38,333 bases of DNA from a virus. Both the position numbers and the translations under genes were made by a program. The stretch is taken from positions 1 through 38,333 of IMG/VR virus record IMGVR_UViG_3300009960_000009; one strand, written 5' to 3'. Of this stretch, positions 3,618 to 21,958 are shown one piece after another; the stretch's first letter is position 1, and the number at the start of each line of letters is the position of its first letter. The notes below the pieces were generated by a model. It ran no database searches. It was not told the origin of the DNA and saw only the letters and a list, made by a program, of their open reading frames with translations.

Positions 3618-5873
3618 CTATTTTTTAGAACTTAGCTTGAATATGATTTTCATATTGCCTAAGAATGCCGTGATAGCTCCAGCAACAGCAAATATCTCAG
3701 TAATTCGGCTAGGAATAAACACCGACGTGACAACAGCTACCATACCTGCTAACGCAATACCAATGTCTGTAACAAAGTAAACCTTGTCTTTTACTTGCGT
3801 TGAGATTGTCGGCGAGTATTCAGTGTCGCCTACTTGTTTGTTAATATTTTCTTGAAATTTTTCTAGCTGAGCCATTTGCTCCTCCGTTAGTATTAATGGT
3901 TTATTACCTATTTCAGCTGGTTTTTCCACTTCACCGCTCCCATCTTTAGGCTTTTGCTCAGATTGCCCATTTCCTGGCTCTGCAGGAGGCGTTACATCTT
4001 GAGATGGCTGATTATTCGTCTCAGGTTGCTTCTGCGGCTCCTGCGAACTCTCAGGCTGCTCGTTTTTTGGCGCTTCTACCTGCTTTTTGAGCGGCTGAGG
4101 AGTTCCTGCATCATTTTCGCTGATTTCAGTCATCGGCTCTACGTCAATCCAGCAGTCCATGCCGCCAATATGAAGTTTTGCCATCCACTGCTCGCTTGTA
4201 TCGCTCTTGCCTAAATCAAGTACGCGATATTTACCAGGGATTTTGAATAGCTCGCCGACATTCAAGTCTTGGTCTGGTGTAGCGTAGCTTGCGCGGTCTA
4301 CCTCGACTAGCGGCTCTACTGGTACGCCATTATCTGACCACGTAAAGTCTTGCTTGCACAAAGTATTGCTACGAACTTGCCAAACGCCATCAACTATTTG
4401 CATGTCGTCCACCTGATAAATCCCATCGAACCTCACCCAGCTACCAACTTCAAGGTCTTGATCGACTGGATTATTTGGCGCAACTGGCGCTGGAGGATTA
4501 GAGCTACCGCCTCTGTAACGAAATACGCGCAGTTGCTTTACGCCAGCAGCGCTAGCAAAGGCGTCGTGGTTATTAACGCTCATACCGTAGCTAAAATTAC
4601 AATGAACGATATCGTTAGGGTTGATAAATATGCCTGTGTGAGCTCCGCCGCCTGGCGTCGTCCAATCTCCAGAGATTAGCCAGAGGAAAATGTCGCCGCG
4701 CTGAGCATCAATCGTGCCGTTAGCGTCGGCTGGTATTTCAGAAAACCCGTGAGCTGGCAGGTCGCTAAACATCCGTCCAGTCCAGCCAATCGGCGTACTA
4801 GGCGGGAGGATGCCGGCTGCTTTTAAAGCGTGATAGACTGCACTCGAGCAGTTACCGGTGATAAAAGGTGTGCCGTTGACACGTGCAACTATATATGTGC
4901 TCTCTACTGAGATACATGACACCATAGTCTCGCGAGTAGAGATTTTCTGGCCAAGGCTATAGCTTGGATTAGTATAGTAAGTCAACACATAGTAATCTGA
5001 GTAATTCTCGCTCCGGTTATCAACTATTTTTCGTTGTGTTGATTTGACGCCGTTGACAGTAAATACAGCCTGAACAGTATCTACATCTTTTTTATTTGTA
5101 GAGCCAAATAGCTTTCTTGCGCCGTAATCCGTGCCGTCCCACTTGTACAGCTCGTGGAAGAATACATCGAACTTATGTTCGTCGATGTTCACCCAGTCTT
5201 CTGTAAACGATTTGTCTTTCAGATACTTCTCTGCGAAATTATCAATAATGGTATTGTCATCAATCGTTATCTGAGCAGTATCATCCTTTAACTCATCGTA
5301 AATAGTGTATGTTAGGCCAATACTCTCTAATAGGTCGAGGAGCCTATTAATTTTCCTCTTCTTGCTGAGGTGAAAATGAACACGTGTTGTGTTGCCAGAT
5401 ATCTTTTTGTAGTGGCCGTCGGCTTGAATCGCCACAAGCAGCTTAAACTCATCATCAGATAGGTCATTCAGCGCTGTGTACGGCTTGTCCATAGTAGTCA
5501 TATCTGGCGTGATAACAGAATAGCTGTCCTTAATGTCACCCCATAACGCTTCTCGAATATAGTTTGTCTTCTTAGTGCGATACAGTACTCGGTGGCTATC
5601 AGTCGCTTCAAAGTCTCCACGGCGTGTGACTTCTGCCATATATGGCTCAACAACGTTCATGACCTTTGTTGGAGACAATTTGTTGGTTTTGACGTCATAT
5701 TGCACCACATCGTCGCCAACTGCGAACTCGCTCAGAGGTTTCCAGCCTGTCGGTGTAAGAAGTTCTGTACTGTCTAATGGCAGGCAGTCGTAACTCTCTG
5801 GTCCATTCCTATTCTCCATCGAGTAGCTAACTTTACCGACACGAGATAACATCCAGTTGATCGCTTGTTCCAT
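3618..5873 (-). CDS. Intein-containing NlpC/P60-CHAP-type cysteine peptidoglycan endopeptidase. It also carries an SH3b-like module, a Pro/Gln/Glu-rich linker and two C-terminal TM helices. Likely a virion-associated lysin or endolysin.
   Basis: Spliced extein reads ...NRNGPESYD|CSSAVYHALKAAGILPP...GDIFLWL...GGGAHTGIFINPNDIVHCN, a Cys/His NlpC-P60 signature. C-terminus IGIALAGMVAVVTSVFIP...IFAVAGAITAFLG is hydrophobic. AAGGAGAGG RBS. Confidence 0.8.
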   Translation of the reverse strand: MEQAINWMLSRVGKVSYSMENRNGPESYDCLPLDSTELLTPTGWKPLSEFAVGDDVVQYDVKTNKLSPTKVMNVVEPYMAEVTRRGDFEATDSHRVLYRTKKTNYIREALWGDIKDSYSVITPDMTTMDKPYTALNDLSDDEFKLLVAIQADGHYKKISGNTTRVHFHLSKKRKINRLLDLLESIGLTYTIYDELKDDTAQITIDDNTIIDNFAEKYLKDKSFTEDWVNIDEHKFDVFFHELYKWDGTDYGARKLFGSTNKKDVDTVQAVFTVNGVKSTQRKIVDNRSENYSDYYVLTYYTNPSYSLGQKISTRETMVSCISVESTYIVARVNGTPFITGNCSSAVYHALKAAGILPPSTPIGWTGRMFSDLPAHGFSEIPADANGTIDAQRGDIFLWLISGDWTTPGGGAHTGIFINPNDIVHCNFSYGMSVNNHDAFASAAGVKQLRVFRYRGGSSNPPAPVAPNNPVDQDLEVGSWVRFDGIYQVDDMQIVDGVWQVRSNTLCKQDFTWSDNGVPVEPLVEVDRASYATPDQDLNVGELFKIPGKYRVLDLGKSDTSEQWMAKLHIGGMDCWIDVEPMTEISENDAGTPQPLKKQVEAPKNEQPESSQEPQKQPETNNQPSQDVTPPAEPGNGQSEQKPKDGSGEVEKPAEIGNKPLILTEEQMAQLEKFQENINKQVGDTEYSPTISTQVKDKVYFVTDIGIALAGMVAVVTSVFIPSRITEIFAVAGAITAFLGNMKIIFKLSSKK
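4851..5786 (-). mobile_element. Intein (~312 aa, residues 30-341 of the lysin) with a LAGLIDADG-type homing-endonuclease core. It is inserted immediately before the catalytic Cys of the NlpC/P60 domain.
   Basis: Block A is CLPLDSTELLTPTGWKPLSEFAVGDDVV (Cys1 codon 5784..5786). Block B is EATDSHRVL (TxxH). The endonuclease motif is FKLLVAIQADGHYKK. C-terminal block ...YIVARVNGTPFITGN precedes +1 Cys (Asn codon 4851..4853, +1 Cys TGC 4848..4850). The penultimate residue is Gly, not His. Confidence 0.75.
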
Positions 5874-6259
5874 TATTTCCTCTCCTTAGCGTCAATCGTT
5901 CCTTTAATAACATTAGATTGCTGAAAAAACTGCTGTGCCATCTGCATTGCATTCAATCCCGTGGCTACGATAAACAGAGTAAAGGTTGTGCCAGCAAAAA
6001 AATTCAATATCTTATTCTCGGACAGTACAATCACTTTTATTAAAAAGTTGTTTGTCAGCTTGTTGTTTAACTCTTTTAAGCTAGCCAATGATTCGTCGGT
6101 CTCTTTTCTGTACTCCTCGAGCTCGCGCTTAAGCGCCAGATTGTCCAGCTTCTCATTTATTTTTTCAAGCATGACGGTATGCTTGTTGGATTCGTCTTTA
6201 ACATGTGCTATGTCAGATTGCATCATGCCGAACTCTTTAGCGGATATTTCAGAACACAT
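5873..6259 (-). CDS. Coiled-coil protein with a C-terminal TM helix. Possibly lysis-associated (holin or spanin-like) or an assembly factor.
   Basis: N-terminal heptad-like KLDNLALKRELEEYRKE. Hydrophobic FFAGTTFTLFIVATGLNAMQMA. TAATG stop/start overlap with the lysin gene. Confidence 0.4.
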   Translation of the reverse strand: MCSEISAKEFGMMQSDIAHVKDESNKHTVMLEKINEKLDNLALKRELEEYRKETDESLASLKELNNKLTNNFLIKVIVLSENKILNFFAGTTFTLFIVATGLNAMQMAQQFFQQSNVIKGTIDAKERK

Positions 6260-8029: not shown

Positions 8030-9373
8030 TTATGCAGATTCTCGCGGGTCTCCTAAATATTCTGCGAGCCCAGCGGTAGGAGCTAAAGCGCCAAGCCCTA
8101 GCACGTACGGTGATTTGCCGCGCTTGCCAGTCTTAGCTAAATAGGATAGCGCCAAATCTAAATCACCTTTATCGACGTATTTATTGATGTTATTGACGCC
8201 TAGCTTTTTCAAATCGTCTATTACTTGCTGTGACGAGCCTTCTGGAATATAGGCGCTATGGAATTCGTTGCCGCCAACTACACGGCGGGGTTTTGCTTCA
8301 AAATACGAAACGGGCACTTCTTTGTACAATTTTTTTAAATTAGTTACGTCATCTGCGACGTCATTAGGTAATTCACTTTTAGCAGCTTTTAGCTTGCTGG
8401 GGCTTTTCAGCGCGTCATTAAGGTACTCTGTAGCGCTATCATCTAGCCCAAAGTTTAGCCCCTCAAATTGCGGTAAGTCAGATTCTTTGACACGCTCAAG
8501 AACGTTGCTAAATAAATTATCAGCAACCTCTTTTGTCGCTTCTCCAGTTCGATTATCTATTAACCTGTACTTATTTTTATATAAATCATCTAAGCTATTG
8601 AGCTTTCTTGTGTTGTCAATGTAGGCTTGCGTATTAGGAGGTGTCCACCCCTGCTCACCGCTAATAGCAGCTAGTTCATTCATGGCGTCACTTGCATTTT
8701 GGGCTGTAAGAGGCAGCTCCTTTTCTGTTCCGCGTTTATTAGTATATTTTATTATTTTGTCGCCGCGTAATTTATCAAGATTCTCTTGAGCAAATTTATT
8801 AAATTCAGGATTGCCTCTAATCTCTGACGTGTATGCATCAGCAAATTGCGGATTTTGCAGCTGAAAAGCGTCTCGCATGGCTGGGCTGTAAAGCTCGTCC
8901 AGGTCCAAATTACTCCTAGCAGAGGCGTTGGACATATTATTGGCTGCCGCAAATTCTCTCAGCGCATCATCGTTCATTTTATATGTTGTGTTTGGAAAAC
9001 GCGGCGAATAAATATCTCGGTCGCCAAGTATCACTTTAGAAGCTGCGTTAGCTGGGTCTACCATGTCTCGGTTAGCCACCATTACGATGTCGCCAAAGTC
9101 GCTACCTGGCAAAAAATTGGTACCTTTATTGGCGTCAACAACAGCCATAGACGGCTGCACAAAACCTCCTAAATCGGCCGCTCCACGCAGTTTTTCGGGC
9201 GTTAGTTGGTGAGTTGCGATTAGATTACCGTACTTATCAGCAATATCATCAGCACTGTTTTTGGACATAAACTTAATAACGTCGTCAGAATAATTAGACG
9301 CTATTTTATCAGCAACGTCGTCGCCGGCGTTCTTGAATATTCCGCTAAACAATCGGCTCAGGCTGCTCATCAC
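8030..9373 (-). CDS. Hypothetical head-morphogenesis or minor virion protein.
   Basis: 447-aa ORF directly downstream of, and overlapping, the portal candidate. Confidence 0.4.
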   Translation of the reverse strand: MMSSLSRLFSGIFKNAGDDVADKIASNYSDDVIKFMSKNSADDIADKYGNLIATHQLTPEKLRGAADLGGFVQPSMAVVDANKGTNFLPGSDFGDIVMVANRDMVDPANAASKVILGDRDIYSPRFPNTTYKMNDDALREFAAANNMSNASARSNLDLDELYSPAMRDAFQLQNPQFADAYTSEIRGNPEFNKFAQENLDKLRGDKIIKYTNKRGTEKELPLTAQNASDAMNELAAISGEQGWTPPNTQAYIDNTRKLNSLDDLYKNKYRLIDNRTGEATKEVADNLFSNVLERVKESDLPQFEGLNFGLDDSATEYLNDALKSPSKLKAAKSELPNDVADDVTNLKKLYKEVPVSYFEAKPRRVVGGNEFHSAYIPEGSSQQVIDDLKKLGVNNINKYVDKGDLDLALSYLAKTGKRGKSPYVLGLGALAPTAGLAEYLGDPRESA

Positions 9374-16102: not shown

Positions 16103-17539
16103 TTACACATCTTCGACAAACGGCAGCGCTAGTTTAACTGATAGTAGCTGCGCGGCTGCTGAGTGCGAGTTAATCACTGCCTCTTCAATAGCTTTTGCGC
16201 TGTCTACAATACCAGCTTCTACTACATCTACAGTCTCGCCAGTTTCGATATTGGTGCCGGTATTATCTTTAAAGACTGAATCGCTGGCTGAGCGGTTAGT
16301 TAGTAGTTCGAAAGGTTTTTTGAAATAATCGAGTTCTAATTTTTTCAAGAATACGCCACCGCCTGGCAAAACGCCATAGTCAAAGGCGGTGCGAGCTGCG
16401 CAAACAGCATCTTCAATGCGAAGTTTTAGTTCTTGACGCTCAGCTTGAGTTGGCGCACCGACAGAAATTCGTACGGTTTTGCCGAGCAAACGCTCGCGAC
16501 GTTCGGTCGAATCAACGCTTTTAGCATATTCAGCTAATGAATCTGGGGAGGTACAACCTGTCAGTGTGGTTTCTGTCAATGAGATAAAAGCAGAATTTAC
16601 AGTGCCTACGTATTCTTCAACGTCAAAATCATCGGCGTTACCAGTATACTGCTCTGTCGATGCGTATTTGGCTATGTCGTTCAAGAACGCGTCGCGGTCT
16701 AATGCGATTGGCTCAACAATAGCAATATCTAAATTACCTTTAAGTTTATTAGCCACGATAGTCTCTAATGCTTGGCCAGATACGTCGGCAACTAACAAAA
16801 TAGGCGATTTATCAGCGCGCAAGCATTTGTCAAGGATAGGCAAGATATCTTCACTTTTAGAAATAAGTTTTGGCAAAACGATGATGGCTGGGTTGTCATA
16901 CTGAGTACGCAGCGTCTGTAGATTGTCTGCTAATGCTGGCACTCGTAATCCCTTTTTAAAAGTAAACCCGTTAATCGTTTCAGACGATATCTGATTTTCT
17001 GGAGTTTCGACAACAGCGACGCTGCCGAGCTTACCGACGCTCGACACCGCATCTGCTACCATCTCACCGATAGCTGTATCGCCAGCAGAAATTACTGAGA
17101 CATGGCGCAGCAGTTCGTCGTTACATTCTAGCTTTTCTGCTTCAATTTTTTTCAGCACTTCGGCCACCGTCTGATTAATACGGCGCTGAGCTTCACGCGG
17201 CGTCAGGTCTTGTCTGCGCCAGTAATCGTACGCCAATTTCGTGAGCACGATTGTGAGCGTTGTAGAATCGCCAGCATTTCGATTAGTTCGCTCGCTAGCT
17301 TGTCTAACCACTGAAATAACCGAATTTTCGATTGAATCTTCTATAACTAAGTTTTTGACGTTAGTGATGCCGTCGTGCGAAATTAACGGCTCGCCAAAAC
17401 GCGGCTCAATCATGACGTTGCCAGAGTTAGCGCCGTATGAGGCCAACGCGACCTCGCAAATCGCGTTAACACCATTTTCAACAGACTTCTGGATTTTTTC
17501 GCCAGAAACGATTTTTCTGATTAAATTACGCTTTGGCAT
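16103..17539 (-). CDS. groL: Phage-encoded GroEL-family chaperonin (Cpn60), 478 aa. It lacks the GGM tail.
   Basis: NAGDSTTLTIVLTKLA resembles the GroEL AGDGTTTATVL motif. IEDAVCAARTAFDYGVLPGGGVFL resembles [23 protein letters not shown]. C-terminal AAAQLLSVKLAL. Confidence 0.8.
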   Translation of the reverse strand: MPKRNLIRKIVSGEKIQKSVENGVNAICEVALASYGANSGNVMIEPRFGEPLISHDGITNVKNLVIEDSIENSVISVVRQASERTNRNAGDSTTLTIVLTKLAYDYWRRQDLTPREAQRRINQTVAEVLKKIEAEKLECNDELLRHVSVISAGDTAIGEMVADAVSSVGKLGSVAVVETPENQISSETINGFTFKKGLRVPALADNLQTLRTQYDNPAIIVLPKLISKSEDILPILDKCLRADKSPILLVADVSGQALETIVANKLKGNLDIAIVEPIALDRDAFLNDIAKYASTEQYTGNADDFDVEEYVGTVNSAFISLTETTLTGCTSPDSLAEYAKSVDSTERRERLLGKTVRISVGAPTQAERQELKLRIEDAVCAARTAFDYGVLPGGGVFLKKLELDYFKKPFELLTNRSASDSVFKDNTGTNIETGETVDVVEAGIVDSAKAIEEAVINSHSAAAQLLSVKLALPFVEDV

Positions 17540-20417: not shown

Positions 20418-21188
20418 ATGGAAAAACCTATTGAAAATGTTGACCACTGGTCATACTCATCGGCCAAAAACATCTACCACAGCGGCATTGATTACGCTGT
20501 CGGGTTGAAGCTTGGACTGATTGAGAAAACCTACAGCAAGGCTGTAGACATTGGCAAATTAGCACACGCACACCTACTTGGCGGCGAACAAGAGTTTGTG
20601 GTCAAGCAATATCCAGACTATCGCACGAAAGAGGCGAGAGACTGGCGTGATGCACAGACTCTACCAATCATTGACGAAGCCGAGTTTGAAACGATTTGCA
20701 CAATCGCCGAGCGAATTAAAAGCCATCCGCTGGCAAATCAGCTGGTGCTTGGCAAGAACGCTCGCCACGAAATACCACTTAAAGCAAAAATCGAGGGCAA
20801 AGACTGGGTTGGTCGAGCTGACGTCGTTGGCGTCCAGGACGATGAAATCAAGTATTGTCTCGATGTCAAAACCACTGCTAGGTTCGACGACTTCAAGTGG
20901 GAAGCACGCCGAATGGACTATGACCTGCAGGCAGCACTCTATTCACTGATCGCCGAGTGCGAGAGTAAAGAGTTCTTCTGGGTCGTGGCCGAGACGGTCG
21001 CACCGTACCGCGTTGGTGTCGCAACAGCATCGCCAGAGTTTATCGATAGCGGCTTTGTAAAGCTAGAGCGAATCGTTAGCGAAATCAAACGCTTTGATAA
21101 ACGAGCTGGCAAGACAGACCTCGAAAAGGTCAACTTTAACATAAACGAAACCATGGACGACATCCTTGTTCTTGGAGATTGGAGCTAA
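20418..21188 (+). CDS. PD-(D/E)xK exonuclease (YqaJ / lambda-Exo-like), the partner of RecT.
   Basis: ...GRADVVGVQDDEIKYCLDVKT has the D...D/E.K signature. It lies directly upstream of, and overlaps, recT. Confidence 0.6.
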   Translation: MEKPIENVDHWSYSSAKNIYHSGIDYAVGLKLGLIEKTYSKAVDIGKLAHAHLLGGEQEFVVKQYPDYRTKEARDWRDAQTLPIIDEAEFETICTIAERIKSHPLANQLVLGKNARHEIPLKAKIEGKDWVGRADVVGVQDDEIKYCLDVKTTARFDDFKWEARRMDYDLQAALYSLIAECESKEFFWVVAETVAPYRVGVATASPEFIDSGFVKLERIVSEIKRFDKRAGKTDLEKVNFNINETMDDILVLGDWS

Positions 21189-21958
21189 TAGTGACAGAGA
21201 CAGCTATTCAAAAAACAAGCAACACACCGCTGACCTTACAGCAATTAGTAAAGTCTGACGCGATTATGAAGTCGGCTGAGCGTACGCTTGGCGAAAAAGG
21301 CAGGCAGTTTCTGACAAGCGTGCTAGCACTAGCGAACAGCAGTCCAGCAATCGCCAAATGCGACCCGATGACAACATACAACGCTTGTCTGACAGCAGCG
21401 ACATTAGACTTGCCAGTCAATCAAAACCTAGGTTTTGCCTACATCGTGCCATACGCTGGCAAGGCTCAATTCCAGATGGGCTGGCGCGGATTTGTGCAGT
21501 TAGCGATGAAGACAGGTCAATTTAAAAGTTTAGGAACTAGAGCTGTTTACGAAAGCGAGCTGGTTGGCGTCGATTCGTTTACTGGTGAGCCAGAGTTTAA
21601 CTTTAATATTGAGAAAGGTGGTAAGATTATCGGCTATATGGCGTATTTCGTGCTACTGAACGGTTTTCGCAAAGCTGAGTTTATGACTAACGACGAGCTT
21701 GAGAAACATGCGAAGCGATATTCAAAAACCTATAAAAGTGGCGGCGGCGTTTGGAAAGATAATTTTGACGCAATGGCGAAAAAGACAGTGCTCAAATTAC
21801 TGTTGGGACGTTACGCGCCACTAAGCATTGAAATGAAAACAGCGATTATTGAGGATCAGAAAGCCGGTGGCGAGTATGTCGATAATAAGCCAGGCTCGTC
21901 GCTAGAAGTCGAAGATGCTGAGGTAATTTTAGAGGAAGACAATGGCAGCAATAAATAA
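21179..21958 (+). CDS. recT: RecT-family single-strand annealing protein.
   Basis: GFAYIVPYAGKAQFQMGWRGFVQLAMKTGQ is the RecT core motif. Confidence 0.75.
   Translation: MELIVTETAIQKTSNTPLTLQQLVKSDAIMKSAERTLGEKGRQFLTSVLALANSSPAIAKCDPMTTYNACLTAATLDLPVNQNLGFAYIVPYAGKAQFQMGWRGFVQLAMKTGQFKSLGTRAVYESELVGVDSFTGEPEFNFNIEKGGKIIGYMAYFVLLNGFRKAEFMTNDELEKHAKRYSKTYKSGGGVWKDNFDAMAKKTVLKLLLGRYAPLSIEMKTAIIEDQKAGGEYVDNKPGSSLEVEDAEVILEEDNGSNK

Follow-up and report, generated by a model that had tools for sequence, protein, structure and literature searches.

The virus genome IMGVR_UViG_3300009960_000009 (IMG/VR; the whole stretch of 38,333 nt was analysed and is hereafter referred to as the window) carries, with high probability, a mobile LAGLIDADG intein with class 1 features, which interrupts a phage endolysin in frame between Asp29 and the catalytic Cys (amino-acid (aa) positions are those of the 751-aa precursor, unless intein numbering is stated). 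We base the assignment of the segment as an intein on its homology to other inteins, on its predicted fold and on the existence of an exactly matching empty site, rather than on a match to the Pfam Hint profile. The anatomy of the segment and the polymorphism in its presence or absence among closely related phages (see below) point in the same direction.

The scan of IMG/VR with an alignment of the exteins (i.e. the host-protein portions that flank the intein) recovered a second viral contig (L058, IMGVR_UViG_3300011978_000008), in which a lysin gene of 1317 nt encodes a protein of 439 aa, equal in length to the predicted splice product and differing from it by 10 amino acids (98% identity). 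The DNA flanking the lysin gene was found to be 94-96% identical between the window and L058 on both sides, the sole large difference being a 936-bp gap situated exactly at the predicted borders (GTTACGAC/TGC...; slashes denote insertion points throughout). Since the L058 lysin represents the predicted splice product, the window must carry a precise 936-bp in-frame insertion. Moreover, the 90%-identity cluster to which the window protein belongs comprises 30 members, and among the 15 listed the insert is present in three (751, 749 and 741 aa) and missing from the other 12, all of 439 aa. Taken together, the empty site of L058 and the insert-free cluster members rule out that the segment is an ordinary domain, or that it reflects a pseudogene or an assembly artefact. 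The related supposition of a decayed insertion that no longer splices (or of a faulty assembly), leaving the gene a pseudogene, would be in keeping with the missing penultimate His and with the lack of matches to splicing-domain profiles; it is nevertheless extremely improbable and already contradicted by the data, given that the identical protein was recovered on two independent contigs (with the 749- and 741-aa variants on others), that the reading frame is intact, that the splice residues and the two endonuclease Asp are all retained in relatives of 23-70% identity, and that an intein-free allele shares 98% identity with the extein. Furthermore, the inteins of the window and of another phage contig (L053) show a moderate amino-acid divergence (dN 0.23), their synonymous sites being too diverged for an estimate.

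A preliminary description, made from the letters of this DNA, had proposed an intein at aa 30-341 (which correspond exactly to window positions 4851..5786), and each of the motifs that it named (a block A Cys, TDSH, LLVAIQADGHY and ...ITGN followed by Cys) is present where it placed them; the proposal as a whole is borne out by homology, structure prediction and the natural intein-less allele, which together exclude a chance resemblance. Excision of the segment fuses ...GPESYD with CSSAVYHALK, and Cys342 doubles as +1 splice nucleophile and catalytic Cys of the lysin. A homologue search covering 5.8 billion proteins yielded full-length relatives that share both the insert and its place (P0001-P0004), further lysins of this family in which a related insert occupies a second place (P0005-P0017 and P0034), and 25 insert-free clusters of the lysin (P0018-P0042 except P0034). 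Related inserts were also present in 25 Amidase_2 lysin clusters, at H-x7-/CP (P0043-P0067), and in PolA, AAA ATPase, primase, RtcB and PrkA proteins. Once the inserts were excised in silico, all Amidase_5 sequences (including the 25 intein-less clusters) aligned free of gaps across both junctions. At the sequence level the segment matches inteins found in the genes for RNR, NAMPT, RtcB, primase and PolA, and among the PHROGs it matches a PhoH family, of which at least one member evidently contains an intein. Among 24 aligned inserts (23-70% identical to the window intein) the residues Cys1, Glu8, His65, Asp123, Gly124, Lys142, Lys145, Asp217, Cys291, Gly311 and Asn312 (intein numbering) are invariant, Thr62 is conserved in at least 90% of the relatives, Gly218 is nearly invariant, and the +1 position is occupied by Cys, Thr or Ser in every case; the junction residues on which the proposal depended are thus retained in diverged relatives. 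Cys1 and Cys291 are the only two Cys of the intein. The AlphaFold model of the intein, built from the same alignment, reached a mean pLDDT of 92.6 and a pTM of 0.91, and Foldseek matched it best to the intein-endonuclease TliVMA (PDB 7qsu, E 1e-13, TM 0.70), followed by PI-SceI, PI-PfuI and PI-TkoII, while the central domain matched I-DmoI structures (E about 1e-7, target TM about 0.64). The coordinates of all features are collected in Table 1.

Table 1. Features of the intein-bearing lysin gene and of the gene upstream of it (window coordinates).
Feature	Position	Strand	Description
Precursor open reading frame	3618..5873	-	751 aa, 83.8 kDa; N-extein, intein and C-extein in one reading frame
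N-extein	5787..5873	-	aa 1-29 (MEQAINW...GPESYD); opening part of Amidase_5 catalytic domain
Intein	4851..5786	-	aa 30-341, 312 aa, 35.8 kDa; Hint splicing domain with inserted LAGLIDADG homing endonuclease domain
Intein block A	5742..5786	-	Cys30 (intein Cys1, N-terminal nucleophile) opens CLPLDSTELLTPTGW in the precursor translation; invariant in 24 relatives
Intein block B	5580..5612	-	FEATDSHRVLY; TDSH at aa 91-94; His65 invariant, Thr62 nearly invariant (intein numbering)
First LAGLIDADG motif	5409..5447	-	FKLLVAIQADGHY, aa 143-155, contains LLVAIQADGHY; Asp123 and Gly124 invariant (intein numbering)
Second LAGLIDADG-type motif	5124..5162	-	FFHELYKWDGTDY (KWDG), aa 238-250; Asp217 invariant, Gly218 nearly invariant (intein numbering)
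Intein block F	4884..4925	-	MVSCISVESTYIVA; Cys291 invariant (intein numbering)
Intein block G and Cys342	4848..4874	-	GTPFITGN plus Cys342; Asn341 terminal, Gly340 in place of usual penultimate His
C-extein	3621..4850	-	aa 342-751; remaining catalytic domain, wall-binding domain, linker, membrane helices
Catalytic His motif	4623..4652	-	GGGAHTGIFI; His aligns with Lys2972 His101; empty copy of insertion site b (GH/TG)
ZoocinA_TRD wall-binding domain	4140..4421	-	aa 485-578; Pfam E 2e-18
Pro/Gln/Glu-rich linker	3897..4100	-	aa 592-659; predicted disordered
Two C-terminal hydrophobic helices	3639..3782	-	aa 698-720 and 727-745; kept in full-length relatives
Upstream 128-aa protein	5873..6259	-	coiled-coil stretch and one hydrophobic helix; possible holin; no family match

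The protein that hosts the intein can be recognised as a lysin most clearly after excision. While in the intact protein the Pfam family Amidase_5 is found in two pieces (121 bits), in the spliced sequence it forms one contiguous match (PF05382, protein 2-147 on profile 3-141 of 142, 136 bits, E 9e-40), in agreement with the earlier expectation that joining GPESYD to CSSAVYHALK would recreate the D-C-S active site. The best PHROG of the spliced sequence is phrog_998 (annotated 'endolysin', E 4e-47), and further matches were obtained to the endolysin Lys2972 (PDB 8tw1, E 5e-19) and to the recognition domain of zoocin A. The catalytic residues of the CHAP domain of Lys2972 are C35 and H101 (PMC10980517), with which the Cys of DCSS and the His of AHTG align, both of them invariant in the lysin family; the Cys sits at the start of a helix in the AlphaFold prediction. 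The preliminary description had classed the enzyme as NlpC/P60-CHAP, which holds insofar as Amidase_5 is a member of the CHAP/NlpC-P60 group, and it had read the following module as SH3b-like, where Pfam identifies ZoocinA_TRD (aa 485-578). Its two C-terminal transmembrane helices, on the other hand, are supported by Kyte-Doolittle peaks at roughly aa 697-745 and by a helical hairpin that AlphaFold predicts there. We consider a membrane tether and a fused holin-like module as candidate roles for this hairpin; the PHROG search of the C-terminal membrane region and of the neighbouring small open reading frames gave no meaningful match, and an N-terminal signal-anchor helix (the criterion for SAR endolysins) is absent, the hydrophobic segments being confined to the C-terminus (about aa 697-745). 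An arrangement of disordered linker, hydrophobic hairpin and Lys-rich tail is common to the full-length relatives (P0018-P0042), which derive mostly from Saccharibacteria-labelled genomes.

With regard to mobility, the intein occupies two places within the Amidase_5 lysins: site a (...SYD/C...GN/CSS), at which the +1 residue is the catalytic Cys, and site b (...GGH/C...VGN/TG), directly after the catalytic His. The inteins were found to be more similar to one another than their exteins, both at site a (window and P0002: 70% and 40% identity, respectively) and at site b (P0005 and P0013: 64% and 41%), and exteins that are 91-96% identical nevertheless differ by the presence or absence of an intein. 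Furthermore, among syntenic phage contigs the intein sits at site a in L053 and at site b in L056, and is absent from L054 and L055; these alleles were compared by pairwise DNA alignment after excision. The substitutions that separate the window from L058 are clustered at the insertion point (18 in one stretch of 160 nt and none in the next 177 nt; scan-permutation p = 0.003), with 16 of the 18 falling in codons whose amino acid is unchanged, a pattern that fits a co-conversion tract or a divergence of the endonuclease target, although it is only suggestive. Homing endonucleases are expected to target the most conserved stretches, and NGPxSYDCSS, which spans site a, is the most conserved peptide of the lysin family (as chosen automatically in the locus search). 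The six-frame scan of the window with the intein profile detected the lysin copy only. As regards site b, GH/VG replaces GH/TG in P0002-P0004 (which carry the site-a intein) and in some intein-less alleles (P0039 and P0041); Val is unable to serve as +1 nucleophile, and such alleles could therefore not host a functional site-b intein.

Beyond Amidase_5, inteins of the same kind were observed in Amidase_2 lysins, mainly at H-x7-/CP(G), where the Cys is probably the third zinc ligand, as we assume from T7 lysozyme (His17, His122, Cys130), with further sites at WH/CG and IH/S. The intein profile retrieved 20,013 sequences at E ≤ 0.001 (3,912 at E ≤ 1e-30) from 1.84 billion representative proteins, and the H-x7-/CP signature was present at 69 insertions among the 142 best new matches. 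By Pfam scanning, 69 of 79 representatives were found to be Amidase_2 proteins accompanied by SPOR, PG_binding_1, SH3, CW_7, LysM or choline-binding domains, and the exteins of this group are similar to endolysins from phages of Faecalibacterium, Acutalibacteraceae and Clostridium. A neighbour-joining tree places the lysin inteins of all sites in one group, separate from those of polymerases, P-loop ATPases and reductases, and the two Amidase_5 intein groups are sisters inside the lysin clade. Judged by these sequence comparisons, the lineage, most of whose members reside in peptidoglycan hydrolases, occupies at least five sites in lysins of two unrelated folds and is spread over dozens of metagenome sequence clusters. 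Two of the Amidase_2 proteins (P0076 and P0077) each hold two inteins of the lineage (at WH/CG or IH/S plus H-x7-/CP), and P0192 holds one together with a separate upstream LAGLIDADG match, which suggests a second intein. P0260 is a 574-aa Amidase_2 intein-lysin deposited in GenBank as DAV01833.1 under the title 'MAG TPA: N-acetylmuramoyl-L-alanine amidase [Caudoviricetes sp.]', in which the intein is unmentioned. A different kind of interruption was noted in a prophage of Streptococcus thoraltensis DSM 12221 (L050, NZ_KB904586.1, 6285-7225), whose Amidase_5 lysin is split between ...KRGQSAG and GGHTGIFVD... (2-3 codons upstream of site b) by about 0.95 kb holding an open reading frame for a 208-aa HNH endonuclease; it looks like an intron, and Rfam returned no match to it at gathering score or at E ≤ 1.

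Following established intein chemistry, from which the steps of splicing and homing are taken, we propose that the 84-kDa precursor would be unable to cleave peptidoglycan, because the helix of the active site is interrupted and the catalytic Cys is engaged as the +1 splice residue. Splicing would begin with an N-S acyl shift at Cys30, continue by transesterification to Cys342 and then by cyclisation of Asn341, and end with an S-N shift, yielding a lysin of 48 kDa and 439 aa (with the YDCSS active site restored) and a free intein of 36 kDa. The latter may then act as a two-motif LAGLIDADG homing endonuclease that cuts lysin alleles devoid of the intein, carried by co-infecting phages or by prophages, at their conserved DCSS-coding site, into which the intein would be copied by recombinational repair, possibly with the help of the phage's own RecT and exonuclease. 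The genes for these two proteins lie side by side at window positions 20418-21958 (+); they indicate phage-encoded recombination and could support the repair step of homing.

Several points weigh against this interpretation. Splicing, endonuclease activity and the inactivity of the precursor are what we infer from the sequence and from the chemistry of other inteins. Neither the Pfam Hint and Intein_splicing profiles nor the NCBIfam splicing-domain hidden Markov models (HMMs) match the segment, and LAGLIDADG_3 passes its Pfam gathering cut-off (22.5 bits) narrowly, with 23 bits in the intact protein and up to 25.5 bits, by which the HMM searches recommended in the preliminary description for aa 30-341 succeeded for the endonuclease and failed for the splicing domains. 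The PDB sequence search with the intein gave marginal matches (E 0.048), the GC content of the intein (42.9%) is not distinct from that of the window (44.7%), and the neighbour-joining tree carries no support values. Moreover, the penultimate His is absent (Gly311, in intein numbering, is invariant in the family), and two further residues, as we map them, depart from the intein block consensus: the His common in block F is presumably missing as well, and Cys291 stands where, by this mapping, class 1 inteins usually carry Asp. With the penultimate His, the block F His and the block F Asp all missing, splicing could be slow, conditional or achieved by a different route.

The different route might be that of class 3 inteins, in which case Cys291 of block F, and not Cys1, would form the branched thioester. 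Cys291 occupies what we take to be the block F position at which class 3 inteins have their nucleophile, and it is invariant in the 24 relatives; furthermore, in the window copy a Thr precedes the penultimate residue, as in the class 3 'WCT' signature (PMC7664689, PMC5050341). We nevertheless regard this route as very unlikely, as Cys1 is invariant whereas class 3 inteins are devoid of an N-terminal nucleophile, the Trp expected two residues past the block B His is replaced by Val, Met or Ile, and the Thr gives way to Val, Ile or Ala in most relatives. As for the penultimate Gly, to which the preliminary description had drawn attention, the intein in gp51 of mycobacteriophage Bethlehem likewise carries Gly at this position and splices, and a change from Gly to His slows its splicing (Kelley 2016, PMC5050341). 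This intein (of class 1, as the one we describe probably is) resides in another host protein, the RDF.

Another possibility is that splicing is conditional and serves as a safety catch or timer on lysis, triggered for example by the reducing cytoplasm through the redox-sensitive Cys1, Cys291 and +1 Cys. The insertion at the catalytic Cys (by which lysin activity should require splicing), the restriction of the intein's own Cys to Cys1 and the invariant block F Cys291, with the +1 Cys beside them, the tuning of splicing rate by penultimate-residue variation in phage inteins (PMC5050341), and the persistence of intein-bearing alleles in several phage lineages and two lysin folds would all accord with it. 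On the other hand, an insertion into a conserved catalytic motif is what homing endonuclease targeting would produce without any benefit to the phage (DCSS belonging to the most conserved peptide of the family), and intein-less alleles predominate among near-identical phages (12 of the 15 listed), which shows the intein to be dispensable; we thus consider a regulatory role rather unlikely. Similarly doubtful, in our view, is the broader proposition that the lineage is specialised on phage peptidoglycan hydrolases and that its chemistry (Cys1, block F Cys, +1 catalytic Cys and no assisting His) makes their activation conditional. Should conditional splicing hold true, it would constitute a post-translational timer or safety catch for lysis in phages of Saccharibacteria and gut Firmicutes, and a natural case of intein control over an enzyme outside nucleic-acid metabolism.

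Compared with known systems, the mobile intein of the window shares with its best structural matches (PI-SceI, TliVMA and PI-PfuI) a Hint domain with an inserted two-motif LAGLIDADG endonuclease, as well as Cys1, the block B TxxH, the terminal Asn, the +1 Cys and an insertion at an active-site motif of the host protein. It differs from them in sequence (8-13% identity), in length (312 aa as against 366-537 aa), in having penultimate Gly instead of His and block F Cys instead of Asp, and in its host, a peptidoglycan hydrolase where theirs is an ATPase or polymerase. Its nearest homologues in deposited genomes are the phage inteins of RNR, NAMPT, RtcB ligase, primase/helicase, PhoH and PolA (Staphylococcus Twort-like phages, Corynebacterium phage Darwin), which have the same architecture and are 22-29% identical over the whole intein; unlike the lysin, their hosts of known function (among the records listed) act in nucleotide or nucleic-acid metabolism, or are protein phosphatases. 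Self-splicing elements in lysin genes as such are not new, as a group IA2 intron is said to have been reported by Foley in 2000 from lysin genes of Streptococcus thermophilus phages. About half of these lysin genes carry the intron (PMC10980517), which is thus a mobile self-splicing element within a homologous gene (Amidase_5 plus ZoocinA_TRD), though one that splices at the RNA level. A shared insertion site of this intron and the intein was considered and rejected, since in phage 2972 the intron follows about codon 199 and does not coincide with the catalytic Cys or His. Lys2972 itself is the closest solved relative of the extein; the two agree in their two-domain layout and in the catalytic Cys and His, and Lys2972 lacks the intein, the Pro/Gln/Glu linker and the C-terminal membrane helices.

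What is new, then, is not the mechanism, which is known, but the kind of protein that hosts the intein, along with the finding of a large lineage of lysin-associated inteins. No report of an intein in a lysin was found in the searchable literature, which leaves most subscription journals outside and a prior report possible; the impression voiced in the preliminary description that such inteins are unreported is consistent with this and with our searches of deposited phages. Phage intein surveys list mostly DNA- and nucleotide-handling host proteins together with some structural ones: none of 224 mycobacteriophage endolysins studied in 2012 was interrupted by an intein (PMC3314691), and no lysin intein appears in a 2016 survey of mycobacteriophage inteins (PMC5050341) or in a 2025 survey of about 800 actinobacteriophage inteins in 19 host genes. 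Among 50,697 deposited phage genomes, the near-identity DNA search of the region gave no match, and tblastn searches with the whole precursor and with an Amidase_2 intein-lysin (P0055) gave no record with at least 80% coverage, the extein matches being intein-less. Homologues of the intein itself were detected in 202 of these records, and in the 60 that were listed (an even sample down the ranking) they fall in reductase, ligase, primase, PhoH, phosphatase, thymidylate synthase, terminase, polymerase or unannotated genes, with no annotated lysin among them. A lysin interrupted at its catalytic Cys thus adds a new functional class of intein hosts, and the natural near-isogenic alleles with and without the intein, combined with the read-out that lysis timing offers, provide a system in which to ask whether an intein is parasite or regulator. 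Moreover, antibacterial lysin genes mined from metagenomes may hold unannotated inteins, and lysin inteins could serve as built-in activation switches for engineered lysins.

The genomic context bears on the stage of infection at which the lysin acts. The window encodes a terminase large subunit, a portal, a major head protein, an SU10-type adaptor, a tail-fibre-like protein and replication genes, and the lysin gene is placed between portal-proximal and tail-fibre-like genes instead of at the end of a late operon. This position, and a C-terminal membrane hairpin that is unusual in an endolysin, would suit a virion-associated lysin that functions at entry, in which case the intein would affect infection and not release. 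We hold this to be unlikely, considering that the combination of enzymatic and wall-binding domains is that of the endolysin Lys2972 and the best PHROG is annotated as endolysin, that a small membrane protein is encoded directly upstream (its stop codon overlapping the start codon of the lysin), and that an intein-less homologue (P0030), in a prophage on a 369-kb contig, occupies the classic place, where it follows the tape measure and tail genes, lies behind an open reading frame of 102 aa and precedes the integrase by a few genes.

Regarding the host of the phage, a search of one genome for each of 185,579 species produced matches to the whole 439 aa (including the membrane hairpin) on 10 contigs of metagenome-assembled genomes (L006-L012, L016 and L017 among them). 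Six of the 10 are labelled Candidatus Saccharibacteria or Saccharimonas (one of these has an ORAL tag in its name) and the other four only 'uncultured bacterium'; in Streptococcus, Enterococcus and other genera the match is limited to the catalytic domain. We therefore favour Saccharibacteria as the likely host, with some reserve: it is the lysin on which this assignment is founded, because the other open reading frames of the window have no similarity to the Saccharibacteria and prophage loci. The intein would accordingly appear to reside in a phage that infects Saccharibacteria, for which few phages have been characterised.

Scans of the window for tRNAs and Rfam families returned no match. 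Two further genes of the window were noted, namely one for a GroEL-like chaperonin (16103-17539, minus strand; Pfam Cpn60_TCP1, E 4e-32; phrog_5725, E 1e-103) and, beside the portal gene, one for a 447-aa protein (8030-9373, minus strand) with a PBECR5 nuclease domain of the Barnase/EndoU/colicin-like kind (E 1e-16).

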